DNA of 64,000 bases from Candidatus Multivorans sp. (GTDB lineage: Bacteria > Acidobacteriota > Thermoanaerobaculia > Multivoradales > Multivoraceae), in NCBI GenBank assembly GCA_965247095.1, contig OZ251997.1:2272001-2336000 (forward strand), read 5' to 3'. The notes beneath the pieces are model-generated. The model had not been told where the DNA came from, did no database searches, and saw nothing but the letters and a program-made list of their open reading frames with translations. The position numbers were made by a program, and so were the translations under genes. Of this stretch, positions 6,874-41,867 are shown piece after piece (position 1 is the stretch's first letter; the number at the start of each line of letters is the position of its first letter).

Positions 6874-6918
6874 ACCGCTGGGCCGCCTGTTGGCGGCCGA
6901 ACAAGCCGAAGCGAAGAA

Positions 6919-7110: not shown

Positions 7111-7122
7111 GCGCTACGCCGC

Positions 7123-8150: not shown

Positions 8151-8202
8151 TGCCAACAGAAGCTGCGTTTCGGTGATACTGTGTGGCTGTGAGATCGTGC
8201 CC

Positions 8203-8493: not shown

Positions 8494-8902
8494 CACGAAC
8501 GTCCTGATCTACGCGGCCAGCCCCTCTCCGGACGAGGCCGGGAAGCGGCGACGCGCACAGCAGCTACTGAGGGACGGGGACCTCGCCTTGTCGGTTCAAG
8601 TGCTGCAGGAGTTCTACTGGCAAGCGACCCACCGGAGGCGAGGGGATGCACTGACCCCCTCGCAGGCTCTTGGATTCATCGACTCGATCCGCGACTTTCC
8701 GGTTCAGGCCATAACGCAGGACGTGTTTCGGAACGCGGTTGCTCTCAGCCGACGCTTCCAGATCGCATACTGGGACGCAGCCATCCTCGCGGCGGCTCAA
8801 GCCTCCGGCTGCGATGCGGTCTACTCCGAAGACCTGAGCCACGAACAGGACTACGGCGGCATACGCGTCATCGACCCCTTTGGCGAGGCAGCCCGCCGAT
8901 GA
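8480..8902 (+). CDS. vapC: PIN-domain (VapC) toxin
   Basis: MRFVDTNVLIYA, QVLQEFY, YWDAAIL, YSEDL. Confidence 0.9.
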   Translation: MRFVDTNVLIYAASPSPDEAGKRRRAQQLLRDGDLALSVQVLQEFYWQATHRRRGDALTPSQALGFIDSIRDFPVQAITQDVFRNAVALSRRFQIAYWDAAILAAAQASGCDAVYSEDLSHEQDYGGIRVIDPFGEAARR

Positions 8903-9003
8903 CAACCGACACCTCCGAGCGCGGGCTCGAACGTTTCATCTGCAAGCACTGGATGTCCGAGACCGTCTTCAACCGCGCGTACGATCAGGCGGGGGCACCG
9001 TGA
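8899..9003 (+). pseudogene. hsdR: hsdR collapsed to 34 codons (N-terminus joined to C-terminus)
   Basis: MTTDTSERGLERFIC-KHWMSETVFNRAYDQAGAP*; the halves resemble the usual HsdR start (TDTSE.GLE) and end (W..DTVF..TY); ATGA and GTGA overlaps with both neighbours. Confidence 0.65.
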
Positions 9004-10229: not shown

Positions 10230-10299
10230 CCACCCAAGAGCCGTTACCCTCTCGCTACCTGACGCAAGACGACCATCAGCCAAACCGGGAGGCTTCGCC

Positions 10300-12912
10300 A
10301 TGTTGAATCGACGCCAGTCCGCAAACCGCCTCGTGCTCCTCTCTCCGCTTGTCCTGGCGCTCGTCACCCATGGATGCACCGGCGGCGACTCCGACGACTA
10401 CCTGACGCCCGACCTGCGACAACGCGTCGAGGCGCTGAAGCTGGAGGCGCCTGAAAGCACCGACGACATCGCCGTCCTGTCCGACCGACTCGACACGCTG
10501 TGGCAGTGGGCGAACGCCTACTCGCTCACCGGTGGGCCAGTACCCGACGCCTTCCCTCAACTCCTCGCCAACGTGAATCGCACGCTGCGGGGAATCGGGG
10601 GCGGCGCCGTGGTCCCGACTGACTTCGTGCCCGAGTTCATCCGGCTCTACACCCGCGAGTTTCAGATCAAGGACGAGCACCCCGGCGCGATGGGCTCGCT
10701 ACGTTTCGACCCGCCCGGGCCCTTCCACGCAGGGGACCAGGTCGAGATCCGGCAGATCTACACGGTGGGCACGCTGGGCATGGCGGAGGGAGGCGGCCTC
10801 CTGGTCCGGGCCGCGCGGACCGGCATTCAGGCTGAAGACCCGGCGGGCCAGAACTACGTCACCGTCGAAAGCTCGAATCCAGACGCGACGCTGACCGCCA
10901 GCGACCCCTGGGACAACTGGCAGGGGATGCACTTCCGCTCTCGGTCCGGCCCGGTGCGCCCAGGCGTACCGCGCACCTTGATTCCGCTTCGCCTGAGCGG
11001 GGCGGCGCTCGACGAAGGCGACACGATCACGGTCACCTACGGCGACACCTCCGGCGGCGGACCCGGCTTTCGGCTCCAGGAATCGTCAAGCGACCAGGTG
11101 ATCCTGCACGTCTACGTCGACATCGAGGGCAAGGGCGACCTCTTCCGGCCGACCTGGCCATCGTTCGAGGTGCTGGGCCGCGACGAGGTCCGCTACGTCA
11201 ACACTGTCGCGCCCTCCATCGTCGCGCCGGACGAGCCCTTCACCCTCGCCGTCCGCGCCGAGGACCGGATGAAGAACCTCTCATCCGGCGTCATGCCCGC
11301 GCTCGAGGTTCTAGTCAACGGCGAGCCGTTCCGAAGCATCGCGGCCGGCAGTCCGGCGATCTCACTGCTCGAGGACGTGACCCTCGCCGAGCCCGGCGTC
11401 TACCGCTTCTCGGTGCAGAACGAGGACGGATCGATCCGCGCGACGAGCAATCCTGTCCGGGTCGAGGACGACCCGGCAAACCGCGTCTACTGGGGTGAGA
11501 CCCACGGCCACACCGCCTTCGCCGAGGGGCAGGGATCGCCAGACGGCTACTACCGGTTCGGGCGCGATGTGGCCCGGCTCGACTTCCTGAGCCTCTCCGA
11601 GCACGACATCTGGATGGACGACAGCGAGTGGCGGAAGCTGCAGGAGCTGGTCGAGGACTACCGGATCGAAGGCCAATTCACGACCATCCTCGGCTTCGAG
11701 TGGACCTCGCGGTCGCCGCTCGGCGGGCACCACAACGTCTTCTTCCGCGACACGCCGAGCCGCAGCCGAGTGCCCAATCAGAAGGCGCCCCTGCTCGACG
11801 AGTTGTACGCCGGACTCCGCCGCGAGAACAGCACCGACGACGTGCTGGTCATCCCGCACGCGCACCAGCCCGGCGACTGGACGAACAGCGATCCGGAGAT
11901 GGAACGCCTGGTCGAGATCCAGTCGGGCCACGGCACGTTCGACTGGTTCGGCAACAAGTACCTGCAGAACGGGTTCGAGGTCGGCTTCATCGGCGCGTCC
12001 GACAACCACAACGGACACCCCGGCTACTCCGGGATCGGCAACCGGCAGTTGGGCGGCCTGGCTGCCGTCATCGCGTCGGAGAACAACGCGGACGCGATCT
12101 TCACCGCGCTGCGCGATCGCGCCGCCTACGCCACGACCGGCGAACGAATCCTTCTCGAAGCGACACTGAACGGCGCCCGAATGGGAACGCGCCAGGACGA
12201 CGCCGAGGCGCGCCGGATCGACTGCCGGGTGAACGGGACGGCGCCCATCGATGCGATCGACGTGATCAAGAACGGCACGATCGTCTACACCAGGAGGTAC
12301 CTGGAGAGCGAGCTGTCCGAAGAGGCCCGGGTGCAGATCACGTTCGAGTCGTCGACCGAGATCCACAGCGAGCGCACGCCGCCTCGCGGCGGGCGGCCGT
12401 GGAAGGGCTCAATCCGCGTCGCCGGAGCAAGACTGATCGGGTACGACGATCCCTGGTTCACGCAGCCCGCGACCTATCGCGTCGCCCGCGCAACGGAGGA
12501 CCACAACCGGATCGACTTCGACTTCCCCACCCGCGGGCGCCCGAAGTCGCTGGTCCTCGAGTTGCGCGGCGCCAGCCCGGACACAGTGGTCACCGTCGAG
12601 ATGGAGACGACGACGGAGTCCCGCGGCTCGGGCGGCTACGTCCGCGTGCCCCAGGAACTGCCGGCGAACACGGTGCGCTTCCGCCTGGGCGATCTGAAGG
12701 GCCAGGTCGACCGCCGCGAGTATCAGGTGCTCGAGCACACGGATGCACTCTCCGCGCAGGTCGTGACCGAGGGGCAAGCTCTCGACCAGGACTTCAGCTT
12801 TGTCGATCAGGGTGACATTCGGCCCGGCGACTACTACTACCTGCGGGTGCGTCAGATCGACGGCAGCATGGCGTGGTCGAGCCCTTTCTGGGTGGGCGAA
12901 AGCTCCGGGTAG
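10300..12912 (+). CDS. Exported DUF3604/PHP-like metallohydrolase, probable lipoprotein
   Basis: Signal peptide with THGC lipobox; YWGETHGHT, SEHD, GFEWT, HHNV, GASDNH; C-terminal YYYLRVRQIDGSMAWSSPFW. Confidence 0.75.
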   Translation: MLNRRQSANRLVLLSPLVLALVTHGCTGGDSDDYLTPDLRQRVEALKLEAPESTDDIAVLSDRLDTLWQWANAYSLTGGPVPDAFPQLLANVNRTLRGIGGGAVVPTDFVPEFIRLYTREFQIKDEHPGAMGSLRFDPPGPFHAGDQVEIRQIYTVGTLGMAEGGGLLVRAARTGIQAEDPAGQNYVTVESSNPDATLTASDPWDNWQGMHFRSRSGPVRPGVPRTLIPLRLSGAALDEGDTITVTYGDTSGGGPGFRLQESSSDQVILHVYVDIEGKGDLFRPTWPSFEVLGRDEVRYVNTVAPSIVAPDEPFTLAVRAEDRMKNLSSGVMPALEVLVNGEPFRSIAAGSPAISLLEDVTLAEPGVYRFSVQNEDGSIRATSNPVRVEDDPANRVYWGETHGHTAFAEGQGSPDGYYRFGRDVARLDFLSLSEHDIWMDDSEWRKLQELVEDYRIEGQFTTILGFEWTSRSPLGGHHNVFFRDTPSRSRVPNQKAPLLDELYAGLRRENSTDDVLVIPHAHQPGDWTNSDPEMERLVEIQSGHGTFDWFGNKYLQNGFEVGFIGASDNHNGHPGYSGIGNRQLGGLAAVIASENNADAIFTALRDRAAYATTGERILLEATLNGARMGTRQDDAEARRIDCRVNGTAPIDAIDVIKNGTIVYTRRYLESELSEEARVQITFESSTEIHSERTPPRGGRPWKGSIRVAGARLIGYDDPWFTQPATYRVARATEDHNRIDFDFPTRGRPKSLVLELRGASPDTVVTVEMETTTESRGSGGYVRVPQELPANTVRFRLGDLKGQVDRREYQVLEHTDALSAQVVTEGQALDQDFSFVDQGDIRPGDYYYLRVRQIDGSMAWSSPFWVGESSG

Positions 12913-12945: not shown

Positions 12946-14025
12946 ATGCGGAAGACCCTCGCGCTGTTTTCCCTGCTGCTCGTGTCGGGCGGCGGCGCCG
13001 TCACCGTGGCGGCCGCCGACGACATCCCCCGAACCGCCAGCGGCAAGCCCGACTTCACCGGCCGCTACGACATCCGCTCGTTGACGCCCTTCGAGCGCCG
13101 ACCTGAGCGCGGCGAGGAACTCGTACTCAGTCCGGAGGAGGCCGCCGAGGTCGAGGCCGTGCAGGCTCAGCGGGTCCTGGCCGGCGACGCGGCCAGTGCG
13201 CCGGATCGCCCGCCGCCGGAGAAGGGCGCCTTCATCGACCGGCAGAGCTACAACTACGCCTGGTTCGATCCGGGCCACACGATGTTCAAGATCGACGGGG
13301 ACTACCGCACGTCGGTGCTGACGAACCCGTCGAACGGACGATTGCCGCCGCTGACGGAGGCCGCGAAGGCCCGCCGTGCGTCCCTTCCGGTGTTCATCTG
13401 GATGCAGGACGACGGCACGGCATGGTGGCTGGAGACGGGCGACACGCCGTTCGACAGCCCCGACACGATGGTCCTGGGGGTGCGCTGCATCTACCAGCCG
13501 GTCGCTTCGATTCCGATCCGTTCGATCTCCTACAACAACCTGAAGACGATCGTGCAGACCGACGATCACCTGATCATCCACATCGAGTGGATGCACTGGA
13601 CGCGCGTCATTCGTATCGACTCCGAGCATGCGCCCTCCGACATCCGCTCCTACTCCGGCGACTCGATCGGCTCGTGGGACGGCGACACCCTGGTCGTCGA
13701 GACGACCAACTTCCGTCGTGAAGCAGCACCTCAGATGTTGCACGGTCGAGAGTCGGCGGGCGTGCCGCGCGGCGCGATGAAGGTCACCGAGCGCTTCAGC
13801 CCGATCGACGGCCAGTCTCTCCTCTACCAGTTCGAGGTCGAGGACGCGGAGTACACAGCGCCCTACGCCGGCGAGATGCCGTGGCCGAAGACGGACCAGT
13901 ACAACTACGAGTACGCCTGCCACGAGGGCAACTACTCGATGCTGGGCCAACTCAAGGGGGCGCGGCAGCTCGAAAAAGAGTGGATCGCGGCCGGCAAGCC
14001 GGTGAAGGACGAAAGCGGGGAGTAG
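12946..14025 (+). CDS. Secreted uncharacterised protein (PRTxxGKPD...GDSIGxWxGDTLVVETTNF...EYACHEGN family)
   Basis: AAGGAG RBS, signal peptide; paralogous to 41868-42965 and 43456-44277. Confidence 0.85.
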   Translation: MRKTLALFSLLLVSGGGAVTVAAADDIPRTASGKPDFTGRYDIRSLTPFERRPERGEELVLSPEEAAEVEAVQAQRVLAGDAASAPDRPPPEKGAFIDRQSYNYAWFDPGHTMFKIDGDYRTSVLTNPSNGRLPPLTEAAKARRASLPVFIWMQDDGTAWWLETGDTPFDSPDTMVLGVRCIYQPVASIPIRSISYNNLKTIVQTDDHLIIHIEWMHWTRVIRIDSEHAPSDIRSYSGDSIGSWDGDTLVVETTNFRREAAPQMLHGRESAGVPRGAMKVTERFSPIDGQSLLYQFEVEDAEYTAPYAGEMPWPKTDQYNYEYACHEGNYSMLGQLKGARQLEKEWIAAGKPVKDESGE

Positions 14026-14028
14026 CCC

Positions 14029-14886
14029 TCAGATCATGCTGTAGCCGGAGCCCTGGCGCTCCGTGCCGAGGCCCCGCGCCTTCTCGATCCAGCCGAACTC
14101 CTCCAGGATCGCCTGGCTGTACGTCACCCGGCCGGTGACGCGGTCGAGCGGTTCGGTGGCCAGTAGCAGGGCGGCCTCGGCCATGATCTCGACCGTTTCG
14201 GCCTCGTTCGGATCGCGGCCTTCCATCAGGCGGTGGTGGACGACGCCGGGTGTGGGCACGATCTGGGACGGGCTGTAGCAGGTCACCGAGATGCCGTGCT
14301 CGTAGACCTCGGAGGCGAGGCCCTGGGTGAAGCGCTCCAGGGCCGCCTTCTCGGCGCCGTAGAGGGAACCGCCGGCGAACTGCGGGCCGGTGTAGGGACC
14401 GCGGCCCGGGCCGATCGCGGCGCCCGAGGAGACGTTGACGATACTGCCGGTTCCGCGCTCGATCATCCCGGGCAGCACGAGCTTCGAGAGGTAGAACGGC
14501 GCGTGGAAGTTGACCGCGGTCGAGCGCATCCACTTGTTGATCGGAAAGTCCACGACGGGGATGAAGTAGGTCAGAGCCGCGTTGTTGACCAGCACGTCGA
14601 CCGGCCCCAGAGCATCGCGCACCTCGCCGACCAGCCGTTCGCAGTTGTTGTATTCGGACACGTCGCAGGCGAAGGCCGCCGCGTCGCCGCCGGCCGCCCG
14701 AATCTCCTCGATCGTCGTCTCGAGCGAACCGCCCAGGTAGTGAGCGCCCTCGGACACGGTACGCGCCGAGCAGGCGACGCGCGCGCCGTGCTCCGCGAAC
14801 AGTTCGGCGATCGCCTTGCCGATGCCGCGGCTCGCTCCGGTGACCAGGGCGACTTTGCCTTCGAGCTTCTTCTCTGCCTGTGTCAT
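14029..14886 (-). CDS. SDR family oxidoreductase
   Basis: TGASRGIG, NNA and YGAEK (YxxxK) motifs; AGGAGG upstream. Confidence 0.92.
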   Translation of the reverse strand: MTQAEKKLEGKVALVTGASRGIGKAIAELFAEHGARVACSARTVSEGAHYLGGSLETTIEEIRAAGGDAAAFACDVSEYNNCERLVGEVRDALGPVDVLVNNAALTYFIPVVDFPINKWMRSTAVNFHAPFYLSKLVLPGMIERGTGSIVNVSSGAAIGPGRGPYTGPQFAGGSLYGAEKAALERFTQGLASEVYEHGISVTCYSPSQIVPTPGVVHHRLMEGRDPNEAETVEIMAEAALLLATEPLDRVTGRVTYSQAILEEFGWIEKARGLGTERQGSGYSMI

Positions 14887-33900: not shown

Positions 33901-34503
33901 GCCGGATCGACCATGCAAGTGCTCGAGGCGCTGCTGCGGCTCCGCCAGGTGGCCTGCCACCCGGGCCTGATCGACGAGGCGTGGGAGGAAGCCGGCAGCG
34001 CCAAGCTCGAATCCCTGTTCGAGCAGGTCTCCGAAGTCCTCGACGAGGGCCACAAGTGCCTCGTCTTCTCGCAGTTCACGTCGCTTCTGGCTTACGTCCG
34101 CCGTCATCTCGAAGAGAAGGACGTGCCCTACGCCTACCTTGACGGCCAGACACGGAACCGGGGCGAAGTCGTTGAGCACTTCCAGACCGACCCGGACTGC
34201 AACATCTTCCTGATCAGCCTGAAGGCCGGCGGCGTCGGCCTGAACCTGACCGCGGCCGGCTACGTCTTCCTGCTCGACCCGTGGTGGAACCCGGCAGTGG
34301 AGGCGCAGGCGATCGATCGCACGCACCGCATCGGCCAGACCCAGCCCGTGTTCGCCTATCGCCTGATCGCGCGCGACACCGTCGAAGAGAAGATGCTCGA
34401 ACTGCAGCGCTCCAAGCGGAAGATCGCCGACGCGATCCTCGAAGGCGGCGGATCGTCCCTGCGCGATCTGACCGCTGACGATCTGCGGCTGCTGCTGAGC
34501 TGA
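30916..34503 (+). CDS. SWIM zinc finger-SNF2 family helicase
   Basis: CGC...CGH SWIM; LADDMGLGKT, DEAQ, TGTPIEN, SLKAGGVGLNL, QAIDRTHRIGQ. Confidence 0.93.
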   Translation: MPEAQSENPTGTSPATKPSGPARRRRRSRPRARARGGRTVALHQRSASHFRPEDREEGQTVFSKGGLKLEIEGASARIAIAPPPAGDGAANVELDWSRVPDERILHAVCGCEQFAAGAACGHIWASLLQLAANQPKSQPSGSGRVSLRKTRPPQVSIPGSVLNAVQPASDDPEDTSRPVRRSRRSRNRRRRTPATTSWRSVVETVREDIERQAEPVEPATPRNAPPQIQLLLNAATSRNAGGLMIDIFGRKQIPQGEFGKLKRLSIDHEKLEELFGLTTDDTVRSAGNGVLPGAGPAMVTALPPEVPARASRKGKGGRGGRNTGRPLVQRVYVPMNWIGPLLPRLSAEGHLYWWDGRSLGDPRAVTIDDGEPWRLGLQLEIAAASRVRLRGLLKRGDETVPLSRAALVLPFPNGDGTAPDAGSGGQGNMLLLLDDAIGRFHLDPRRDQPWYALLGNSGDLVIPDEDLEAAVTSLLELPSLPPLELPQEVYLSEESPVPQPRLALEPEDTPEWMNPQLEARLSFGYGGLTVDAGDLRSAVVDWEEHRFVRRNLKTEQDALVRLLELGLKPVASKSGHSLELEPRDLPAVAEPLLLEGWEVEAHGASIRSPSPPALRIESGVDWFELSGQIEFDGDQIEFSEILAAILDGRRSVQLDDGSKGLLPAAWVENYGSLSQLAQDSSEEGLRFLPSQALLVDALLAVTPPVNVSKTFAELREKLSTFSSIKAKKEPRSFVGTLRSYQRLGLGWLCFLREFGLGGVLADDMGLGKTIQALAFLRTFRTASKTTKLPYLVVAPRSLVYNWIDEAARFTPDLKVLEYAGRDRENLRDEFKTADVVVTTYGTVRRDIGYLATVEFDTVILDEAQAIKNAASQTAKACRLLDGQNRLALTGTPIENHLGELGSIFEFLNPGLLGRLPALDVLAGGRVPSQRELALVAKGLRPFILRRTKEQVLPDLPAKTEQILQCTLNPRQQELYDQLRAGYRDSLLQQVEDKGVAGSTMQVLEALLRLRQVACHPGLIDEAWEEAGSAKLESLFEQVSEVLDEGHKCLVFSQFTSLLAYVRRHLEEKDVPYAYLDGQTRNRGEVVEHFQTDPDCNIFLISLKAGGVGLNLTAAGYVFLLDPWWNPAVEAQAIDRTHRIGQTQPVFAYRLIARDTVEEKMLELQRSKRKIADAILEGGGSSLRDLTADDLRLLLS

Positions 34504-34528
34504 CGCGCCGCACATCGGCCTCCTGAAG

Positions 34529-34567
34529 AGGCCTTCGGAACCCGAATCCGGGTTCCGAAGGCCTTTT
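34529..34567 (+). terminator. Probable intrinsic terminator after the SNF2 gene
   Basis: Perfect 16-bp stem AGGCCTTCGGAACCCG / CGGGTTCCGAAGGCCT, loop AATC, short T tail. Confidence 0.75.
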
Positions 34568-34917
34568 CGCGTCTTAGTCAATGAACGCCGCCGCTGAACC
34601 CGCGGCGCACAACTTCGACGCACCGAAAGAACGATGACGCTCCTGAACTCCCCTCGCAACCCCCGCACACCGCTCCCGAACTCCCTCCCGGACTCCTTCC
34701 CGGACTCCTTCCGACATGAGCCGGGCGCCTACACCAGCAGCGTCTTGAGACTTCGACTCGCGGAGCCTCCCACCCGGACCCTTGAAGCACACCTCGCACA
34801 CGCGCTCCAGATGCTCGGCGCCCGTTCAGCGCCGCTCATCTCCATGCTGCGCTTCCAGGCCCGCCCTCGCCCCTCGGCCCACCGACATGCGAACTACGGT
34901 CACCAGGGGCGCCGGCC

Positions 34918-35424
34918 ATGAACCGCCGCCGAATCGCCATCGCGATCGTCGCTCTGGCCGTCCTCGGCCCTATCGGCGCTCTGTTCTGGTTCGAGTCCAG
35001 GCTCGAAGCAAGACTGTCTCAGCGACCCGAAGTCGGCATGGTGTTCCCCGCCCTGCCGGGCCTCGCCGATGGCGAGTCCCTGCCGGCCTCTCCGGGCCGG
35101 CTTCGGGTCGTTACTTTCGCCAAGGCCGGCTGCGGCAACTGCGACCGCACGATCGCCACGTTCCGGCGACTCGCGGCGGACGGTGAGCACGACCTCGACC
35201 TGATCGCGGTCGTCGCGGCCGCTGAAACGACCGGCCTCGACGACACGGCCACTCTGCGCTCGATCGCCGACCCCGACGCCTCGGTATCCAAGCGCTTCGG
35301 CGTGATCCACGTGCCGCTCGTCTTTCTGGTCGACGAGCACTCCCGCGTCCAGGCCGTCACAACCGGCGAACGGCCCGAGGCCGCTTGGCGCTCCTTTCTG
35401 GGAATCGAGAACGATGCGCTCTGA
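34918..35424 (+). CDS. Membrane-anchored thioredoxin-fold (TlpA/ResA-like) redoxin
   Basis: N-terminal TM; CGNC; FGVIHVPLVFLVD cis-Pro loop. Confidence 0.8.
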   Translation: MNRRRIAIAIVALAVLGPIGALFWFESRLEARLSQRPEVGMVFPALPGLADGESLPASPGRLRVVTFAKAGCGNCDRTIATFRRLAADGEHDLDLIAVVAAAETTGLDDTATLRSIADPDASVSKRFGVIHVPLVFLVDEHSRVQAVTTGERPEAAWRSFLGIENDAL

Positions 35425-35965
35425 TCCGTCTGATACGGCCCGCCGTCGACGGTTGGCTGCCGCCGGGCTCATCCTCGCCACCGGCCTCGTTGCGGTCGCC
35501 GTCCGCGCTGTCGGACCCACCCTGGACCGCCTTTCCTGGGCAACCTCCACCGACCCATCGGCGCCGGGACCCGGCCAGATCGTTCGGCAACAGAAGCGCT
35601 CCGACTGCGGCCCGGCCGCACTCAAGATGATCCTCGATCACTACGGCGTCACCGGCATCACGCTCGCCGAGCTGGAGGTCGCCACCGGCACCGGCCCGGA
35701 CGGCACCAGCATGCTCGCCTTGAAGAAGACCGCCGAGCAAAGCGGTCTCGCCAGCCAGGGCCTCCGCCTGCCGGTGGAGCGGCTGTACGACATCCCGATG
35801 CCCGCGATCGCCCATGTCCACGGCGATCACTTCGTCGTCATTCGCAGCGCCGGCGAGGAACTGGTCATCGACGACCCGTCCCTGGGCCGCCTGCGCATGA
35901 GCGCCCGAACATTCGAACGCTCCTGGGACGGCGTCGTCCTCGCCTTCACCGGAGGGACCCACTGA
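35414..35965 (+). CDS. Stand-alone C39 family cysteine peptidase with N-terminal membrane anchor/signal
   Basis: QQKRSDCGPAALKMIL, GTSMLAL, DHFVV, IDDPS (Q, C, H, D residues); RRRR plus hydrophobic helix; no ABC domains. Confidence 0.9.
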   Translation: MRSDPSDTARRRRLAAAGLILATGLVAVAVRAVGPTLDRLSWATSTDPSAPGPGQIVRQQKRSDCGPAALKMILDHYGVTGITLAELEVATGTGPDGTSMLALKKTAEQSGLASQGLRLPVERLYDIPMPAIAHVHGDHFVVIRSAGEELVIDDPSLGRLRMSARTFERSWDGVVLAFTGGTH

Positions 35966-36154
35966 TTCCGCGGACGGAACGAAACCCGTCCATTTCACCA
36001 AAAACCCGTAACAACTCCAAAAGGGAGCACAACCATCAAACACTCATCCAAACGCGCCGTCGGACCGATTCCCGGCGTCGCCTCTTCGACGAACCCACAC
36101 ACCATGAATCACCACGTCCCCTTCACACACACAACACCGAAAGGACGCCCCTCC

Positions 36155-36475
36155 ATGAAAACGCGTATCGCCCTCCTGTCCGGACTTCTGACTCTCGCCG
36201 CCGGCGCCGCCCTTGCGACTCCGACGACACAGAGCGTGACGGCAGCCGACCAGGACCAGGACCAGGTCCTGACCGCCTGGGATGGCGACTGGGCCATTCC
36301 CGCGGCCGCCTACTCCCTCAGCGTTCCGACGACTGAGCAAGAGCCCATCGAACTCGCCGTCTACTGGCCCTGCGGCTGCATACCCCTTCCCGGCTGTCCG
36401 TTCCCGATGCCCTGGCCCGGCGGCCCGATCTTCAGTCCGTTCCCACTCCCGGACTCCTGCAAGTGCCCGTTCTAA
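36155..36475 (+). CDS. Secreted small protein with Cys/Pro-rich C-terminus (putative peptide precursor)
   Basis: AAGGA RBS; signal peptide; acidic spacer; YWPCGCIPLPGCPFPMPWPGGPIFSPFPLPDSCKCPF. Confidence 0.7.
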   Translation: MKTRIALLSGLLTLAAGAALATPTTQSVTAADQDQDQVLTAWDGDWAIPAAAYSLSVPTTEQEPIELAVYWPCGCIPLPGCPFPMPWPGGPIFSPFPLPDSCKCPF

Positions 36476-36525
36476 ACCCCTTCCGCCACGGCGCTTCCAC
36501 ACCAATCCCCAACCAACCCAACTCA

Positions 36526-36864
36526 ATGATCAACGTACACAAACGTGCCGGCGCCATATTGCTCACTCTCGCCGCCCTCGCAGCGTCGCCAGCCGGTTCG
36601 GCTGTCGCGACGTTCGGCTCGGTATTCACCCCAGCACCCCTGGCACCGGCGGCAACACCGGAAGACACCATCAGGCCGTTGGCCGAGGCTGTCGTCTTGC
36701 AGACCGCGACCCTCGACGCCGTAACCGGCGCCATCAACTGGGGCAAGGTCGCTTGCTGGACAGGCGTCGTCGGCGTTGCGGTCGGCGCCAGTCTGGTGGG
36801 GAGTCCCGGCCTCGGTGCCGGCGCATCCGCTGCGATGGCGATCGCCTGCCTGAGTATCTACTAA
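36526..36864 (+). CDS. Bacteriocin-like precursor A (signal + pro-region + GA site + two-Cys core)
   Basis: ...LQTATLDAVTGA|INWGKVACWTGVVGVAVGASLVGSPGLGAGASAAMAIACLSIY. Confidence 0.75.
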   Translation: MINVHKRAGAILLTLAALAASPAGSAVATFGSVFTPAPLAPAATPEDTIRPLAEAVVLQTATLDAVTGAINWGKVACWTGVVGVAVGASLVGSPGLGAGASAAMAIACLSIY

Positions 36865-36917
36865 TGCCAGCAGTCCCTCGCATTCCTTTCTCTACAACCC
36901 AAGCCTAGGATTCTCTC

Positions 36918-37235
36918 ATGAAACAACTTACAACCACCATCGCCTGTCTATCGCTACTGGCAGGAGTGCTCGCAGTTACCCCAAACGCTCAGCTCGGCGA
37001 CCCGGACCAAACTCCTTCGGAGTCGTCCCTCACGAGATTCGCAGACATCGCGCCCGACGGAATCAAACCGATCACCGACTGGGAAGCCGCCACGGTCACC
37101 GGCACTGGCTGGAGATCCGATTTCTGGTGCGGCGCGGCCGTCGGCGCCGGTTTTGTCTTGTCGGCGACCGGTGTCTTGACGCCCGTCGGAGTTGGTTTGG
37201 CCGCCGCGGGAATCTACTGCGCTCTGTACCTGTAG
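36918..37235 (+). CDS. Bacteriocin-like precursor B
   Basis: Signal peptide; ...ITDWEAATVTGT|GWRSDFWCGAAVGAGFVLSATGVLTPVGVGLAAAGIYCALYL. Confidence 0.75.
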   Translation: MKQLTTTIACLSLLAGVLAVTPNAQLGDPDQTPSESSLTRFADIAPDGIKPITDWEAATVTGTGWRSDFWCGAAVGAGFVLSATGVLTPVGVGLAAAGIYCALYL

Positions 37236-37324
37236 CGAGTCAGCGCTGATCTTCGCTACTCACCACTTCACGGGGAAGTCCCCACTCCCTTTCATCCATG
37301 TACTCGTAAAGGAGAATCAAACAA

Positions 37325-37624
37325 ATGAAGTTGCTGGCAATTGCACTCACCATCGCTCTCGTCTTCTCGGGGGCCGCCACTGCAGCGTCCACCACACTGG
37401 ACGTGCGGAACATCTCTCCGTCTTCCTCAATCCAGGAGGTCGTCCTTCTCGACGACGTCCTGCTGGATGTCACCAGAGGCGGCCTCAACCGGGTCGCGTG
37501 CATCGGCGTGGCCATCGGTCTCGGACTGGGTGGGCTCGTGGCCGGTGCAGTCACAGGGGGCGTTGGTTGGGCTCTGGCCGGAGCATACGCTCCGGCTGTT
37601 GGAGCCTTGCTGTGCTCGCTCTGA
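37325..37624 (+). CDS. Bacteriocin-like precursor C
   Basis: AAGGAG RBS; signal peptide; ...LDDVLLDVTRGG|LNRVACIGVAIGLGLGGLVAGAVTGGVGWALAGAYAPAVGALLCSL. Confidence 0.8.
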   Translation: MKLLAIALTIALVFSGAATAASTTLDVRNISPSSSIQEVVLLDDVLLDVTRGGLNRVACIGVAIGLGLGGLVAGAVTGGVGWALAGAYAPAVGALLCSL

Positions 37625-37819
37625 CTTGAGCAGGATCGGTTAAGGAATGTCACTGGGGAAGGACTCGATGGCTGTGTTGACGCGGGAAAGGAAGCGGTTG
37701 ACAGCTCGGCTGCACTCTAGGACCGCGGCAAGCCAGCCAAATGAGAGTGCGGTGGCTCTCCGCCGTGCTCGTTTCTCATCGCCCCACTCCCATCGGGTCC
37801 TTCGCCAGAGCCCTCGGCT

Positions 37820-37949
37820 GCGGCTCGACGGGGTCATCTTGACTCCGTCGAGCCGCTTCCACGCAAAGTTGGCTTGCTCACCCAAGAGGGTCGGGCCAAT
37901 AGCCGCAAGGATGTTTGACGGACGCTACAGGTGCGGAGTAGCGTCCGTC
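37820..37949. other. Two strong intergenic hairpins
   Basis: 17-bp stem with one G-T pair at 37820-37856; perfect 12-bp stem GACGGACGCTAC/GTAGCGTCCGTC at 37917-37949. Confidence 0.7.
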
Positions 37950-38157
37950 TGTTGGTCGTCAGAGGCGCAGTGGGCCTGCGAGCCGGACCCCCTGCTAGAC
38001 CTAGCCGTCGCCCCTGGGCTTAGGGTCGCTCCCTTCGTCAGGCGAGTCTGCGGGGGGTCTCGTTTGCCCTGTGCAGTGCGGCCGATTCGGCCCGCCACCA
38101 GTCCAGGTGCCGGCGCACCTTCACCGAAAGCCGGCTAGAGCGAACGCGAAGGACTCG

Positions 38158-39771
38158 ATGGCGACGTTGACGAACCCGGGCAGCCGAGTGGACCTGCTGC
38201 TGACCCTTGCACGGCTGTCGTTCCCGGACGCCGTGCGGAGGGCCAACCAACCGGTGGCGGTGGCGATCCTGATCGCCGTCCTGTTTCTGGTGTCCGCGAC
38301 CGTCGCCACACTGGGCCTTCTGCCCGTTCTCTTCACGATCGAGAGTGACGGCCTGCGGCGGAATCTGTTGAACCTGATCGCCTGCTCCATCACGGCACTC
38401 GGGCTGCTCGCCCAGGTGGCGCTTCGAGCGCCGGTCACGTGGCTGCTCGATCTGGAGGACCTGCTGCGGCTGCCGGTGGGTTTTCGAGACCTGTACGGAC
38501 TCCGTCTCGCGCTGAGCACGATCGGGTACTGGCTGCTCGTTCTCGGTCCCGCCGGCGCCTATCTCACGGTCATGAGGTCGGGAGGGGTCGCTGGAGTGCC
38601 GGTCACGTTGCTGGGCATCCTGAGTCTGGTCTGGATCTTCGGCCGTCTGGCGGCGATCCTGTCGCTTCTGGCCCACCGTTGGGTCGAAGGTGCGCTCGGC
38701 ACACTGGCCATGCTGGTGATCATGGCGCTCGGCCAACTCGCGCTCCTCGTCGGCGCAATGGCCTTCGGAGGAGAGCTCGATTCCGAGGGAGTCACTCAGA
38801 CAATCGAAGCTTCCGCGGTTCTCGGCGGTCTCGGCTACACGCCGCCGGGGCTTGTCGCCGGCATCGTCCACGAACCGGGCTGGTCGGCGCCGAATCTGGC
38901 GAGATTCGCAAGTCTGCTCGCCGTTCTCGGCGTCTTGATCGTGCTGGAGAACCGGCTCCTTCTTCGCCGCTACCTCGATCGGCCCGGTGGTGACCGCCGC
39001 ACCGCTTCCGGAGTACTGCCTCTGGCGCGGATGCTCCGCGGGTCGCGCCGCCTCACTCCCTTGGGCGCTCTCACCATGCTCGAGACGGAATGCCTGTTGC
39101 GCCTCAAACCGGCGCGCATGGTTCTGGCAATCATGGCCGCCTTCGCCCTGGTCTGGGTGCCTACCCTTGCCGGTCTCGCGGTGGGTCTGGCTGGGATCTA
39201 CGTTGTGGCTCTGCACGAGTTCCGGGTGCGGAAGCAACCCCCGACCTGCTACGTATGGCGGGAATCGCTCACCCTTCCCCTCTCCGTTCAGCGGATCTTC
39301 CGGGCGCCCGGCCGTGCGCCCAACGTGGTGATCGCCTTGCTTGTCGCGTTCATCTTCGGCCTGACGCCGCTCGACTGGTTCGGGTGGCCATTCTTCCTCG
39401 TCGCGTCCTGCCTGATGCTCGCCAGCATCGTGCTGGGCACAGCCGCATACGGCCTGATCCAGCTCTACTGGCCTCAACGGAGTGCGGGGCTCACCGACAG
39501 CCCGAACAGCTCGAAGTTCGGGGCCTCTCTACTGCTTCCACAGTTGGCCTTTGGCCCGGCCTTCCTCTCGTTCCTCTTGTACGTGCTCTACGAAGGGCAG
39601 CGCGTCAGCCCGCTGACTGCCGGCCTCATCGCGATTGCCGTGCTACTCCTCGCAGCCGCGGCCGCATACGCCTCGCGCCGGTGGCAGGCACGCATCCTCA
39701 AGGCCCGCGGCCGCGAACTCCTCCTCGACAACCCCGCCGAAGACCCTCCGAAGCCATCGAGCCCCCCCTGA
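38158..39771 (+). CDS. Multi-TM membrane protein, probable ABC-2-type permease
   Basis: More than 10 hydrophobic segments in two halves, each with an L.LP motif (LLRLPV, LTLPLS); directly upstream of an ABC ATPase. Confidence 0.75.
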   Translation: MATLTNPGSRVDLLLTLARLSFPDAVRRANQPVAVAILIAVLFLVSATVATLGLLPVLFTIESDGLRRNLLNLIACSITALGLLAQVALRAPVTWLLDLEDLLRLPVGFRDLYGLRLALSTIGYWLLVLGPAGAYLTVMRSGGVAGVPVTLLGILSLVWIFGRLAAILSLLAHRWVEGALGTLAMLVIMALGQLALLVGAMAFGGELDSEGVTQTIEASAVLGGLGYTPPGLVAGIVHEPGWSAPNLARFASLLAVLGVLIVLENRLLLRRYLDRPGGDRRTASGVLPLARMLRGSRRLTPLGALTMLETECLLRLKPARMVLAIMAAFALVWVPTLAGLAVGLAGIYVVALHEFRVRKQPPTCYVWRESLTLPLSVQRIFRAPGRAPNVVIALLVAFIFGLTPLDWFGWPFFLVASCLMLASIVLGTAAYGLIQLYWPQRSAGLTDSPNSSKFGASLLLPQLAFGPAFLSFLLYVLYEGQRVSPLTAGLIAIAVLLLAAAAAYASRRWQARILKARGRELLLDNPAEDPPKPSSPP

Positions 39772-39802
39772 CCACCCACAACCACAAGGAACCCCTGAAC
39801 CA

Positions 39803-40591
39803 ATGGAAGCAATCAAGGCAGACAATCTGACCCGGTCCTTCGGCGGCAACGTCGTCGTCGACGGCGTGGATCTCGATGTCCAGGAGGGTCAGATCCTGGG
39901 TTTCGTCGGTCCCAACGGGGCGGGCAAGACGACGACCTGGTCGATGCTGACCGGGCTGCTCCAACCCACGAGCGGCACGGTCCGACTGCTGGGCAAGCCG
40001 GTCGACGTGAACGACACGGAGCTCAAGCAGCAGCTCGGCATTGTGCCGGACCAGAGCATCCTGTTCGAGAGCCTGACCGGCGAGGAGCTGCTGTTGGCGT
40101 ACGCCCGCATCTACGGCCTGAGCCGCGAAGACGCCGGGCAACGAACCGACGAGGCACTCGCGGTCTTCGACCTCGAAGACGCCGCCAAGCGACCGATCAC
40201 GACCTACTCCCACGGCATGAGAAAGAAGATCCGCCTGGCGGCGTCGACCCTTCACGCGCCGCGGGTTCTGTTTCTCGACGAGCCGTTCGAGGGCATGGAC
40301 GCCCTCAGCGCCCGCACCGTCATGTCGATCCTGCAGCAGATGGCCGAGCAGGACGGCGTGGCCGTGTTCCTGACGTCCCACATGCTCGACTACGTCGAAC
40401 GCGTGTCGACCCATCTCGCCGTCATCAGGGACGGCAAGGTTCTCCTGTCCTGTTCCCGGGAGGAGTTCCGCGAGCTGCCCGACGCCGAGGGAGAAGACGG
40501 CGCCGGCCGGCTCGAGAACCTCATCCTCAGCATCTCCAAACGCGAGAGGTTCTCCCGCCTCTCGTGGATCGGCAACAGGAGCAAGACATGA
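39803..40591 (+). CDS. ABC transporter ATP-binding protein
   Basis: GPNGAGKT, YSHGMRKK, FLDEPFEG, TSH. Confidence 0.95.
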   Translation: MEAIKADNLTRSFGGNVVVDGVDLDVQEGQILGFVGPNGAGKTTTWSMLTGLLQPTSGTVRLLGKPVDVNDTELKQQLGIVPDQSILFESLTGEELLLAYARIYGLSREDAGQRTDEALAVFDLEDAAKRPITTYSHGMRKKIRLAASTLHAPRVLFLDEPFEGMDALSARTVMSILQQMAEQDGVAVFLTSHMLDYVERVSTHLAVIRDGKVLLSCSREEFRELPDAEGEDGAGRLENLILSISKRERFSRLSWIGNRSKT

Positions 40592-41364
40592 CCGAGCATC
40601 CGAACACAACTGACCAGGAGCAGCAGGCCCCTCCCACGGCCGTCGAGCCACACGGGCCCCAAGGATGGTCGGCCGCCCTGATCGCGCTTGTCACCTCCCC
40701 GCAGAGGAGCTTCGAGATCATCCGTCACCGCGCACCGTGGCTCGGCGTCCTGGTCCTGCTCGTGGCGAGCGCGGCCTCCCTCAACCTTCTGGCGACGCCG
40801 TTTGGCCTTCAAGCCGCGCGTGCCCAACTCACGGAGGTGCTCGCCGATCCGCAACAGGTCGACGCCATCGTGTCCGAGGCCGAGCAGACGGCTGCCGCGA
40901 GATGGTGGCTGACTCTCGGAACCGGCGTTGTCACGATGATCTTCAGACTGGCCATACAGACCCTGTTCGTCTGGATCCTGGCGACCGCCCTCCGCGGGCG
41001 CGCCCGCTTCGTGCAGGCCCTCTCGCTGATGGTGTACGTCAACCTGATCACGCACCTCCAGCAGTGGGCGAACTTCCTTCTCCTTCACGTGAGAGGGATG
41101 GACGCGATCCGGTCTCTGCAGGATCTGCAGACGCCCATGGGGCTCGACCTGCTGTTGACCGGCGAAGGCGCGCTCCTGAACGCGGTCTACGCGAGCGTCA
41201 ACCCGTTCACGATCTGGTTCCTGGCGCTGCTCGGCCTGGGCTCCGCGGCGGTTCTCCGCCTGCCCCAACGGGCCGGCTGGGTACTTGCGGGCATCTACTG
41301 GGCGGCTTCAACTGTCCTCTCGGCCGGTGTCGCCGGCGTGATGGCCCGTCTCCTGCCCACCTAG
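40588..41364 (+). CDS. Yip1 family membrane protein
   Basis: LVTSPQRSFEII...PW, ARFVQALSL, NPFTIW...LG; about 5 TM segments; ATGA overlap with the ATPase. Confidence 0.8.
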   Translation: MTEHPNTTDQEQQAPPTAVEPHGPQGWSAALIALVTSPQRSFEIIRHRAPWLGVLVLLVASAASLNLLATPFGLQAARAQLTEVLADPQQVDAIVSEAEQTAAARWWLTLGTGVVTMIFRLAIQTLFVWILATALRGRARFVQALSLMVYVNLITHLQQWANFLLLHVRGMDAIRSLQDLQTPMGLDLLLTGEGALLNAVYASVNPFTIWFLALLGLGSAAVLRLPQRAGWVLAGIYWAASTVLSAGVAGVMARLLPT

Positions 41365-41422
41365 CGCGGCAGAACTACCGGAGGCCGGCGCTTCGCGCCG
41401 GATGCGGGCAGGATGCCCGCGT
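41361..41422. repeat. REP-like dispersed palindromic repeat, copy 1
   Basis: 60/62 identical to 60275-60336; hairpins CCGGCGC-TTC-GCGCCGG and GCGGGCA-GGA-TGCCCGC. Confidence 0.9.
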
Positions 41423-41867
41423 GCCATCCGTGCGCCCGATGACGGGCGCACGGAGTGGTTGCGTGTGGCGCGGGTACGCACCAGTTTCGAGATCGTCCGC
41501 GAGCGCCAGCCACAGGCCGCACCGTCAGTCCCCCCATCTCGTAGCACCTCAAATTCGTTTGACGCCTACAGACCGACGCGGTAACTTCGCCTCAGTTGGT
41601 CGTCGACGGCGTAGGGGGCCTGCGAGCCGGGTCCTCTGCTGAATACAAAAGCCGATACAAGGCGCAGGGTCGCTCCCCGTGCTCGGCGAATAGGCAGGCG
41701 TACGTGCCCACTGTGCATGGCGACCAACAAGGCCCGGCGCCATTCACTGCCCTGGAGCCTGCATCTCCACAAGGGGCAGGCTTGGGCAACGAGCCCGAAG
41801 CGGCCCAAGTCGGTGTTGCTGGTATAACGGGAGTTCCCACCAGGTGCAGTCAAGGAGGAGAGACACG

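Follow-up and report, generated by a model that had tools for sequence, protein, structure and literature searches.

The closest described relatives of the system analyzed here include the peptidase-containing ABC transporters (PCAT/AMS: PCAT1, LahT, ComA), in which a C39 peptidase is fused to the exporter, with their double-glycine-leader class II bacteriocins and peptides. In the bacteroidetocin clusters of Bacteroidetes, the N-terminal double-glycine (GG) leader of a 42-aa Cys-containing peptide is cut by a fused peptidase-ABC transporter, and the cluster includes a thiol oxidoreductase and a 5-TM protein (PMC6671954). A periplasmic C39 peptidase is not itself new, since FapD, from the Pseudomonas functional amyloid system, was shown to be active in the periplasm and to need its catalytic Cys, although its substrate and cleavage site are unknown and Fap proteins lack canonical GG leaders (PMC5557850). 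Moreover, in Bacillus the Sec-exported, processed toxin SDP is counteracted by YknWXYZ, which protects the producer (PMC4887032).

Here we analyzed a locus of an uncultured acidobacterium (Candidatus Multivorans sp., assembly GCA_965247095.1), located in a 64,000-nt stretch of contig OZ251997.1 (positions 2,272,001 to 2,336,000 of the forward strand), hereafter the window. A sequence-only reading had proposed that three small ORFs of this locus encode precursors with a Sec-like signal peptide and an internal double-glycine-like site, matured outside the cytoplasm by a free, membrane-anchored C39 peptidase; our analysis confirmed the observation and supported this interpretation. All nine genes lie on the + strand where that reading placed them, although the permease starts at 38158, the ATPase at 39803 and precursor A at 36526. 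The features of the locus are as follows.

34918..35424 (+), membrane-anchored thioredoxin-fold redoxin (TlpA/ResA-like) with a CGNC motif.
35414..35965 (+), stand-alone C39 cysteine peptidase with an N-terminal RRRR plus a membrane anchor, catalytic Cys65 and His139.
36155..36475 (+), signal-peptide ORF with a Pro/Cys-rich C-terminus (...WPCGCIPLPGCPFPMPWP...) and no GG-type site, of uncertain membership in the system.
36526..36864 (+), precursor A: signal peptide, spacer, leader ...ATLDAVTGA, then a 43-aa Gly/Ala-rich core with Cys 8 and 39.
36918..37235 (+), precursor B: signal peptide, acidic spacer, leader ...ITDWEAATVTGT, then a 42-aa core with Cys 8 and 38.
37325..37624 (+), precursor C: signal peptide, spacer, leader ...VVLLDDVLLDVTRGG, then a 46-aa core with Cys 6 and 44.
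37745..37780 (+), terminator-like hairpin with a T-rich tail after the peptide genes.
37905..38157 (+), conserved non-coding element ahead of the permease, with a 12-bp perfect inverted repeat, GACGGACGCTAC...GTAGCGTCCGTC; probably a regulatory leader or operator of the transporter operon.
38158..39771 (+), polytopic permease of 537 aa with about 10-12 hydrophobic helices, probably the membrane subunit of an ABC-2-type exporter.
39803..40591 (+), ABC ATPase of the DrrA/ABC-2 subfamily.
40564..41364 (+), Yip1-family membrane protein (YknW-like).

Pfam searches assigned Redoxin to the first gene (29.1 bits, cut-off 26.6), Peptidase_C39 (PF03412) to the second (110.5 bits, cut-off 22), ABC_tran (PF00005, 104.9 bits) to the ATPase and Yip1 (PF04893, 37.6 bits, cut-off 28.6) to the last one, while none of the four small ORFs or the permease matched any family (0 of 5). 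The C39 peptidase is the only PF03412 hit in the genome; C65 is at least 90% conserved, H139 and D153/D154 are invariant in our alignment (A1), and its nearest solved relatives are the GG-leader proteases LahT150 (6mpz), PCAT1 (4ry2) and ComA (3k8u), at 68-78 bits. The CGNC motif of the redoxin is present in 49 of 50 orthologous hits. Using NCBIfam, the ATPase scored 217.5 bits with TIGR01188 drrA (cut-off 312), 137 bits with the lantibiotic-protection family TIGR03740 and 108 bits with PmtA, and its translation from 39803 was checked; the Yip1 protein scored 74.4 bits with YknW_fam, below its cut-off of 110.

The permease had no NCBIfam hit either, although its Atlas neighbours score 0.95-0.97 in clusters where 10-45% of members carry PF16962 ABC_export, PF09847 12TM_1 or PF16949. 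Its AF2 model is all-helical (pLDDT 72), and fold matches were only weak: a mycobacterial ABC efflux pump (8k1n, E 0.08), then NosY and Wzm. The non-coding element ahead of it has no Rfam match; it is present in 36 loci with about 74-94% DNA identity over about 255 nt (86-94% in most), and it stays this conserved even where the permease protein is only 43-46% identical. The hairpin, with an 11-pair stem, is the best of 13 terminator-like sites in the region. An RNA-library contig covers 37409-37786 with 2 differences; its stop at 37786 is only a weak hint of termination because contigs cannot show transcript ends.

We next examined the architecture of the small ORFs with a site-finder, which reproduced exactly the three sites (LDAVTGA, AATVTGT and LLDVTRGG) and cysteine positions given by the sequence-only reading. 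Of 44,057 stop-to-stop ORFs of at least 55 codons in the 4.6-Mb genome, 673 of them signal-peptide-like and small, only 3 showed the full architecture, and they are exactly precursors A, B and C, beside the single C39 gene. Since the filter was tuned on this family, the informative part is the zero background elsewhere. As a strand control, we compared the ORFs lying between C39 and the permease in 47 related acidobacterial loci: 127 of 616 + strand ORFs are signal-peptide-like and 82 of those have a GG site, while on the - strand the figures are 15 of 651 and 0. The fourth small ORF has no Pfam or NCBIfam hit and a best Atlas score of only 0.76, although 36 such ORFs follow C39 directly in the related loci and an SD-like site precedes its ATG.

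In the window plus the 47 loci, 87 of 93 candidate ORFs scored as having GG-type sites, two of which are atypical, being a 57-aa peptide (8899-9072 of locus L021) with an N-terminal GG leader and no signal peptide, and an IS-truncated one in locus L031. Among 86 distinct leader-plus-core sequences, positions that were not scored are strongly conserved, with Asp/Glu at -10 in 59 and Ala at -6 in 51, whereas the scored positions show Leu at -12 in 53 and Leu at -7 in 65. At -1 there are G 34, A 29, T 17, S 5 and R 1; in orthologues of precursor B this column alternates among A, T, S and G. Of note, G-T at -2/-1 (17 of 86) seems to be unusual for C39 sites. In alignment A3, precursor C shows L47, C59 and C97 invariant and G52 at least 90% conserved. 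Leader-plus-core fragments hit PF10439 Bacteriocin_IIc at 19.5, 16.3 and 12.8 bits (cut-off 27.1), the last of these being precursor C, and TIGR01847 at 15.6 and 14.7 bits (cut-off 15.7), all of them below the cut-offs.

The signal peptides appear to be translated. An SD-like 4-mer was found in 67 of 78 distinct start contexts against a background of 0.10, and 71 of 78 start with ATG. dN/dS values were 0.44-0.74 for the signal peptide, with codon position 2 the least variable, 0.61-1.01 for the spacer, 0.26-0.68 for the leader and 0.32-0.67 for the core, indicating purifying selection on the signal-peptide region. Regarding topology, 18 of 20 C39 homologues have a single N-terminal hydrophobic segment with 3-8 Lys/Arg before it and 1-2 after it, the other two being short entries of 135 and 138 aa. 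In the window copy the anchor lies at residues 15-33, with K/R counts of 5 before and 1 after, and the redoxin has one hydrophobic segment at residues 6-24 preceded by RRR, so both domains should face the periplasm.

To further explore the relationship between enzyme and peptides, we built a complex model of C39 residues 50-183 with precursor C residues 23-66. The model scored 0.71 against 0.01 for the best of 3 controls, a mark reached by 58 of 80 solved complexes and 2 of 110 mismatched pairs, although these counts hold only roughly here because our own alignments were used. The runs agree in at least 66% of contacts, the partner's pLDDT is at least 55, and the interface covers peptide residues 36-55 and C39 residues 62-66 and 137-140, placing the leader and the GG on the catalytic Cys65/His139 region. 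However, similar complexes have been solved, including PCAT-substrate structures, and the pass may reflect likeness rather than binding.

The full set is syntenic in 35 of the 47 related loci, 43 of 47 carry at least one such peptide, and the redoxin sits immediately upstream of C39 in 42 of 47; many of these loci are close kin, thus the counts are not independent. Importantly, of 8 more distant bacteriocin-type free C39 loci in other acidobacterial families, 7 have 1-2 such peptides, one of them with a redoxin as well. The peptide cassettes are hypervariable and come in fixed pairs (families B+C, D+E and F+G): B co-occurs with family C in 22 loci, orthologues of precursor A are present in 7 loci, and the D+E pair always comes with an extra permease type, in 6 of 6 loci, which is in none of the other loci. 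Intriguingly, permease and Yip1 identities are bimodal across loci, while redoxin, C39 and the ATPase stay at 80-99%.

Our preferred explanation, held with moderate confidence and resting on computation alone, with the topology, cleavage, disulfide, pairing, transporter role and any killing activity all inferred, is that this is a locus for small, membrane-active, bacteriocin-like peptides that mature outside the cytoplasm. In this proposal each precursor of about 100 aa would be exported by Sec, leaving a fast-evolving acidic spacer, a classical 12-15-residue double-glycine leader and a 42-52-aa Gly/Ala-rich core, which probably forms a helical hairpin in or on the inner membrane; this hairpin is only suggested, since the AF2 model of the precursor has low confidence (pLDDT 57.6). 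The redoxin would handle the two cysteines that bracket the core, most simply by closing the open end of the hairpin with a disulfide, although TlpA-like redoxins tend to be reductants and it might instead keep the catalytic Cys of C39 reduced. The periplasm-facing C39 peptidase would then cut after G-G/A/T/S, the peptides come in fixed pairs as in two-peptide bacteriocins, and the separately transcribed permease/ABC ATPase/Yip1 module may remove the hydrophobic product from the producer's membrane, giving self-protection, release, or both. No outer-membrane or periplasmic-adaptor component lies in the locus, and release from a diderm cell is unexplained by this reading.

A possible but less likely alternative is that the maturation route is the same, but the products are small integral-membrane or signalling peptides used by the cell itself, the ABC/Yip1 module handling or positioning them rather than giving immunity. 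The lack of an outer-membrane export component is consistent with this view, as are the length and hydrophobicity of the cores (mean Kyte-Doolittle 1.0-2.0), enough to stay in the inner membrane, and the fixed chromosomal position of the locus in a whole genus, between the same flanking genes, like a housekeeping trait; moreover, other periplasmic C39 systems (Fap, Fil) build fibres, not toxins (PMC5557850). However, hypervariable cassettes with paired paralogues and matching permease types next to conserved enzymes are the pattern of competition loci, the leader and core show sub-threshold likeness to class II bacteriocin families, the ATPase is nearest to resistance and immunity-type ABC-2 ATPases, and the Yip1 protein is YknW-like.

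It is unlikely that the C39 peptidase acts on something else, such as the Pro/Cys-rich ORF, the permease or a distant substrate, the GG-like motif not being a cleavage site. The substrate of FapD, the best-studied periplasmic C39, is still unknown, and the Pro/Cys-rich ORF is the most constant neighbour of C39; nevertheless, the motif keeps the full spacing of GG leaders (-12, -10, -7, -4, -2, -1) across at least 8 unrelated core families, it recurs next to distant free C39 genes, and the complex model, with the caveats given above, places it on the active site.

Classical cytoplasmic processing, with translation starting at an internal codon just before the GG leader, an untranslated upstream "signal peptide" and a C39 domain facing the cytoplasm, is also unlikely. 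In a genome of 67% G+C long open frames arise easily, 37 of 86 peptides have an in-frame ATG, GTG or TTG 12-30 codons before the site, and the 57-aa relative in L021 has a plain N-terminal leader. However, 49 of 86 have no such start, only 3 have ATG and only 2 have an SD-like site, in contrast with the upstream starts; the selection on the signal-peptide region and the K/R distribution around the C39 anchor also argue against it, and the genome has no PCAT-type exporter, with only one PF03412 hit. Finally, membership of the Fap/Fil-type fibre systems is improbable, because although the C39 protein hits NCBIfam C39_FapD (NF058616, 51.6 bits) and pilus_FilB (NF050078, 27.9 bits), and FilB-like loci in the same phylum also place a GG-type leader behind a signal peptide, both scores are far below their cut-offs of 330 and 475, the best NCBIfam hit is to the C39 domain of bacteriocin exporters (87.9 bits), no neighbour shows barrel or repeat-rich subunit features, and the substrates here are 42-52-aa hydrophobic peptides, not fibre subunits.

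We found no description of this logic in the literature searched, and the comparison with known systems shows where the locus departs from each of them. It shares with the PCAT systems the protease fold and catalytic residues, the leader spacing ending in G-G/A/S and Gly-rich cores of 40-50 aa, often with two Cys; however, the peptidase is a free protein of 183 aa with an N-terminal anchor that predicts an outward-facing domain, there is no fused exporter anywhere in the genome, the leader is internal, behind a Sec signal peptide and a spacer, and the linked transporter is an ABC-2-type three-part module, not a type I exporter. With bacteroidetocins it shares a Gram-negative producer, a GG leader, mature peptides of about 42 aa with cysteines, a dedicated thiol oxidoreductase thought to make the disulfides and a multi-TM accessory protein, while bacteroidetocins have no Sec signal peptide, no free C39 and no ABC-2/Yip1 module (PMC6671954). 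FapD and FilB-type peptidases are free C39 enzymes working in the periplasm on Sec-exported partners, as is inferred here, but the partners here are short hydrophobic peptides with canonical leaders, plus a redoxin and an ABC module, and there is no outer-membrane channel.

The SDP system of Bacillus works alike in outline, as the Sec-exported SdpC pro-protein appears to be trimmed after export to a hydrophobic disulfide-containing peptide of about 42 aa, and a Yip1-family protein (YknW) with an ABC transporter protects the producer (PMC4887032); nevertheless, its processing enzymes seem to be unrelated, with no C39 and no GG leader, and YknXYZ is probably a MacB/FtsX-type pump with an adaptor, whereas this locus has an ABC-2-type pump. 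Lastly, two-peptide (class IIb) bacteriocins such as lactococcin G and plantaricins, to which only weak NCBIfam hits were obtained (NF038034 and TIGR03949), would likewise consist of two different GxxxG-rich peptides of 30-50 aa encoded side by side and always occurring together, as families B+C, D+E and F+G do here, although class IIb peptides appear to have N-terminal GG leaders, to be exported by PCATs and usually to lack the bracketing disulfide.

The window, of about 67% G+C, lies in a single-contig genome of 4.6 Mb that is 98.96% complete; the record titles of the 47 related loci compared here name Acidobacteriota MAGs ('Candidatus Multivorans', Thermoanaerobaculia and Holophagales), and a literature search for 'Candidatus Multivorans' or 'Multivoraceae' found no papers. 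The genes of the cluster, all on the + strand, are the following:
34918-35424, +, redoxin (Pfam Redoxin, 29.1 bits, cut-off 26.6)
35414-35965, +, C39 peptidase (PF03412, 110.5 bits over residues 55-179, cut-off 22)
36155-36475, +, the first of four small ORFs, with a signal peptide and a Pro/Cys-rich tail; the other three are the peptide precursors A, B and C
38158 (start, judged from orthologues), +, polytopic permease
39803-40591, +, ABC ATPase
40564-41364, +, Yip1 protein (37.6 bits, cut-off 28.6)

None of the four small ORFs, nor the permease, matched any Pfam or NCBIfam model. The flanking genes, a SNF2/SWIM helicase upstream and secreted proteins of unknown function plus a DUF6152 protein downstream, look unrelated to the cluster. 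The ORF at 36155-36475 has a PFPxPWP-like tail with 2 or 4 Cys but no GG-type site; 36 copies follow C39 in the related loci, it has no family hit and its best Atlas score was 0.76, which is no lead.

To examine the peptide precursors we used a site-finder which looks 2-12 residues upstream of the first late cysteine for G at -2, G/A/S/T at -1, and hydrophobic residues at -4, -7 and -12. It reproduced exactly the three sites and cysteine positions claimed by the sequence-only reading, namely TGA with Cys 8/39, TGT with Cys 8/38 and RGG with Cys 6/44. The whole filter (a signal-peptide-like start, a site score of at least 8, a core of 28-62 aa, at least 2 Cys with the last near the C-terminus, and a hydrophobic core) was then run over both strands of the genome. 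Of 44,057 stop-to-stop ORFs of at least 55 codons, 673 are signal-peptide-like and small, and 3 have the full architecture; these are exactly the three window ORFs, which lie beside the only PF03412 hit in the genome. The filter was tuned on this family, thus what counts is the empty background. In the related loci, the interval between C39 and the permease gave 127 of 616 signal-peptide-like ORFs on the + strand, 82 of them with a GG site, while the - strand gave 15 of 651 and 0, respectively.

The N-terminal signal peptides appear to be translated. Of 78 distinct start contexts, 67 have an SD-like 4-mer at -16 to -5, against a background of 0.10 in the same DNA, and 71 start with ATG. We also considered a classical reading with an N-terminal leader, internal start and cytoplasmic processing, which would need a start 12-30 codons before the site; however, only 37 of 86 distinct peptides have any ATG, GTG or TTG there, and of those 3 have ATG and 2 have an SD-like site. 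Across orthologues of three families (22, 20 and 7 distinct genes) the signal-peptide region has a dN/dS of 0.44-0.74 with codon position 2 the least variable, as expected if hydrophobicity is selected; the spacer evolves almost neutrally (0.61-1.01) but stays in frame, while the leader displays values of 0.26-0.68 and the core of 0.32-0.67. The internal-start reading was rejected on these results together with the predicted orientation of C39 (see below).

The internal motif has the spacing of a classical double-glycine leader. Over 86 distinct leader-plus-core sequences from the window and the 47 loci, Leu is found at -12 in 53, Asp/Glu at -10 in 59, Leu at -7 in 65, Ala at -6 in 51, Thr/Val/Ile at -4 in 62 and Gly at -2 in all 86, although this last position was scored and its count is circular; positions -10, -11 and -6 were not part of the score. 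At -1 there are G 34, A 29, T 17, S 5 and R 1. The unusual G-T site of precursor B occupies the same alignment column as G-A, G-S and G-G in its orthologues, and paralogous loci carry textbook versions such as LSDEELAAVSGG and LTDAQLATVIGG. With the signal peptide and spacer removed, leader-plus-core fragments hit Pfam Bacteriocin_IIc (PF10439) at 19.5, 16.3 and 12.8 bits (cut-off 27.1) and NCBIfam bacteriocin_sig (TIGR01847) at 15.6 and 14.7 bits (cut-off 15.7), all below the cut-offs, a result that shows likeness and not membership; full-length ORFs gave no hit.

Six of the 93 candidates failed the score, and two of the 87 that passed are atypical. One is a 57-aa ORF (8899-9072 of the related locus L021) which has a plain N-terminal GG leader (...LAVVTGG) and a two-Cys core but no signal peptide, being either a counter-example or a 5'-truncated remnant. 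The other belongs to locus L031, in which two near-identical 242-aa transposase-like ORFs (9734-10462 and 14017-14745) truncate a family-C precursor and split the permease.

Both enzymes are predicted to face outward. The redoxin has RRR followed by one anchor at residues 6-24, and its CxxC is CGNC in 49 of 50 hits. In the case of C39, 18 of 20 homologues have one hydrophobic segment near the N-terminus, with 3-8 Lys/Arg before it and 1-2 after it and no second segment, the other two being N-terminally short database entries of 135 and 138 aa; by the positive-inside rule both domains should sit in the periplasm. In the C39 alignment of 20 sequences Cys65 is at least 90% conserved and His139, Asp153 and Asp154 are invariant. 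The nearest solved relatives are genuine leader peptidases, LahT150 (6mpz) at 78.4 bits and then PCAT1 and ComA.

A complex model of C39 residues 50-183 with precursor C residues 23-66 scored 0.71, against 0.01 for the best of three controls, a mark reached by 58 of 80 solved complexes and by 2 of 110 mismatched pairs, although these counts hold only roughly because our own alignments were used. The runs agree in at least 66% of contacts and the partner's pLDDT is at least 55. The interface is formed by peptide residues 36-55, which is the leader through core residue +2, against C39 residues 62-66 and 137-140, which include Cys65 and His139. Complexes of this kind have been solved, so the pass shows likeness and does not show that this pair binds.

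We next compared the related loci. SNF2, redoxin and C39 are shared by 39 of 47, of which 35 have the full set through permease, ATPase and Yip1 and the other 4 are cut by contig ends or, in L031, by insertion sequences; three further loci (L042, L045 and L046) are a paralogous set in which Yip1 precedes the ATPase. At least one peptide of this type is present in 43 of 47 loci. The enzymes and the ATPase stay at 64-99% identity in the 39 syntenic loci, while the interval between C39 and the permease varies from 1.5 to 6 kb and holds at least eight unrelated core families. Intriguingly, these families (lettered as the precursors) come in fixed pairs, B with C in 22 loci, D with E in 6 and F with G in 4, with A added to B and C in 6 of the related loci and in the window as well. 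The pair D+E, a four-Cys/two-Cys peptide pair, always brings a second permease type, in 6 of 6 loci and in none of the others (L002 9944-11566 and its counterparts in L010, L013, L020, L023 and L032); this divergent paralogue, 28-32% identical to the window's permease, lies between the peptides and the main permease. Identities to the window copy are bimodal, 43-46% or 64-84% for the permease and 45-59% or 96-97% for Yip1. This is the behaviour of cassettes made of peptides plus cognate membrane proteins, although the loci are kin and the counts are not independent.

Outside the genus we scanned 401 acidobacterial genomes, of which 88 had a C39 hit (one of them is unpublished and contributes only to this tally). 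The strong family is confined to the window's genus, in 9 of 9 genomes including the window's own, and most other hits are PCAT-sized. Of 8 free, anchor-bearing C39 genes in other families, 7 (L058/L088, L059, L062, L063, L064, L065 and L086) are followed by one or two ORFs with a signal peptide, a GG-type site and a Gly/Ala-rich core bracketed by Cys, while L060/L087 has only a probably frameshifted remnant; L062 also has the redoxin. In a library of 1.84 billion cluster representatives, which gives no context or taxonomy, 131 of the 150 best hits are 300 aa or shorter; 96 of those have an N-terminal hydrophobic segment before the catalytic Cys, 10 have none, and 25 are truncated or were not parsed, thus the enzyme class is large.

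The ATPase is of the DrrA/ABC-2 type, with TIGR01188 at 217.5 bits (below its cut-off of 312), lantibiotic-protection TIGR03740 at 137 bits and PmtA at 108 bits. The permease has about 10 hydrophobic segments by a crude scan, and its Atlas neighbours score 0.95-0.97, in clusters where 10-45% of members carry PF16962, PF09847 or PF16949. Its AF2 model is all-helical with pLDDT 72; the fold search found nothing at E of 0.001 or better, the matches being weak only (a mycobacterial ABC efflux pump at E 0.08, then NosY and Wzm). The Yip1 protein is nearest to the YknW family but below its cut-off (74.4 bits against 110).

A terminator-like hairpin and a strongly conserved non-coding element suggest that the transporter is a separate transcription unit. 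The other features are:
37745-37770, terminator-like hairpin
37905-38157, non-coding element of about 255 nt directly upstream of the permease
41592-41640, weaker second copy of the element, downstream of Yip1
37656-37685 and 38147-38175, repeat of the permease's ribosome-binding site and first codons

The element has about 74-94% DNA identity in 36 loci (86-94% in most), even where the permease protein is only 43-46% identical, and begins with a 12-bp perfect inverted repeat that overlaps a TTGACG hexamer. The related copy lies ahead of the next conserved secreted-protein gene; its 49-nt core is 82% identical, and in other loci the match extends up to 190 nt at 67-69%. The element is single-copy elsewhere in the genome. 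No Rfam family was found in 34500-41600 apart from a chance-level ROSE_3 hit at E 0.28, the single-sequence fold has a z-score of -1.65, and RNAalifold gave 57 pairs of which only 6 have compensatory change; an RNA structure is therefore not shown, and there is too little variation to test a fold. A promoter scan gave 0 sigma-70-like sites in the region, which is uninformative for this phylum. Of note, the permease's ribosome-binding site and first codons (GAAGGACTCGATGGC...GTTGACG) are repeated about 490 nt upstream, just after the last peptide gene, which could be a footprint of cassette exchange or duplication.

In one metatranscriptomic library, contigs match the peptide region, one of 379 nt covering 37409-37786 with 2 differences. 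This is a weak hint of expression, because DNA can be present in such libraries. Only contigs were available, and stretches without RNA cover mean nothing. The peaks at 39891-39937 are Walker-motif matches from other organisms, and the joints that go back (41256 to 37951, and 41303 to 37904) fit the second copy of the conserved element downstream of Yip1 in relatives and are not evidence of a circle.

Taken together, the feature is real, and its architecture and maturation logic are well supported by computation, although the topology and the cleavage are inferred, and the chemistry and the biological role are not shown. We propose that the precursors undergo Sec export and signal-peptidase cleavage, as inferred from the signal peptides, and that the hydrophobic core sits in or on the inner membrane as a hairpin; the AF2 model of precursor C has helices at 41-77 and 80-98 with a break at the conserved TGG, but its pLDDT of 57.6 is too low to use beyond secondary structure. 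The two bracketing cysteines would be joined by the anchored redoxin or, alternatively, the redoxin keeps the protease's catalytic thiol reduced; the genome has 3 DSBA-family hits but 0 DsbB and 0 VKOR, which is suggestive at most and does not settle which way the redoxin works. The anchored C39 would cut after the GG-type site, and the ABC-2/Yip1 module would clear the product from the producer's membrane. Passage across the outer membrane is unexplained, because no adaptor or channel gene is present. In this regard, a different free C39 gene in the loci L041 and L044 (around 3000-8900) is followed by a signal-peptide precursor with LTDAQLATVIGG and a hydrophilic 48-aa core with two Cys; in L044 it lies directly after a long frame that holds an AcrB-type RND transporter and an ABC ATPase domain, hinting at export from the periplasm by another route.

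A broader reading is possible, although we put it forward only tentatively: a widespread, undescribed extracytoplasmic branch of double-glycine peptide maturation in Gram-negative bacteria, in which two-peptide, disulfide-stapled helical-hairpin toxins enter the inner membrane through Sec, are cut and stapled at the periplasmic face by a membrane-anchored C39 peptidase and its partner redoxin, and are then extracted by a cognate ABC-2/Yip1 machine whose permease is swapped together with the peptide pair. In this view the same code, a second leader behind the signal peptide, would also serve the Fap/Fil fibre systems, giving periplasmic C39 peptidases their long-missing recognition sequence. 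In four loci of other Acidobacteriota (L081, L082, L083 and L085), FilB/FapD-like free C39 peptidases with cleavable signal peptides (112-123 bits to the FilB model, below its cut-off, for the two scanned, L081 and L085) each sit next to a secreted protein of 133-179 aa whose signal peptide is followed by a GG-type leader, for example ...LTDAELDSIHAGG in L085, thus the code may serve fibre systems as well; a PDB sequence search with the secreted protein of L081 gave 0 hits.

Double-glycine leaders are textbook cytoplasmic export tags, read by the peptidase domain of the exporter that carries the peptide out. If our reading holds, here the tag is read on the other side of the membrane and is separated from transport. 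This would define a class of bacteriocin-like loci that current miners, which look for N-terminal leaders and PCATs, should miss, and would offer periplasmic C39 peptidases a concrete and testable substrate code; it would also offer a simple protease and tag pair for periplasmic peptide release.

Each part of the system has a precedent. What we did not find in print, in full-text searches that did not reach subscription journals or supplementary files (PMC5557850, PMC3482391, PMC3223724, PMC8939145, PMC6671954), is the combination of a canonical GG leader placed behind a Sec signal peptide and a free, outward-facing C39 peptidase in a bacteriocin-like peptide locus. GG leaders and C39 domains are known in PCATs, in which the C39 domain is fused to the N-terminus of a 6-TM ABC exporter with a nucleotide-binding domain; here the open frame is 219 aa and the protein 183 aa. 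In class II bacteriocins the double-glycine leader is the N-terminus of the precursor, whereas here, with the exception of the 57-aa relative, it starts 37-68 residues from the N-terminus, behind a signal peptide. A periplasmic, catalytically required C39 is found in the Fap system, whose authors state that the substrate is unclear, that Fap proteins lack canonical C39 sequences and that this class is uncharacterised (PMC5557850); membership of our C39 in the FapD and FilB families (NF058616, NF050078) was rejected, with 51.6 bits against a cut-off of 330 and 27.9 bits against 475, respectively. The redoxin has the Redoxin domain, the CxxC motif and the N-terminal anchor of TlpA/ResA-like extracytoplasmic thiol-disulfide oxidoreductases, and thiol oxidoreductases occur in bacteroidetocin clusters (PMC6671954). 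Finally, YknWXYZ protects Bacillus against the Sec-exported, processed toxin SDP (PMC4887032); in that system the YknW-family protein is accompanied by a MacB/FtsX-type permease and an adaptor, while in the present locus the permease has no FtsX/MacB hit and no adaptor gene is present.
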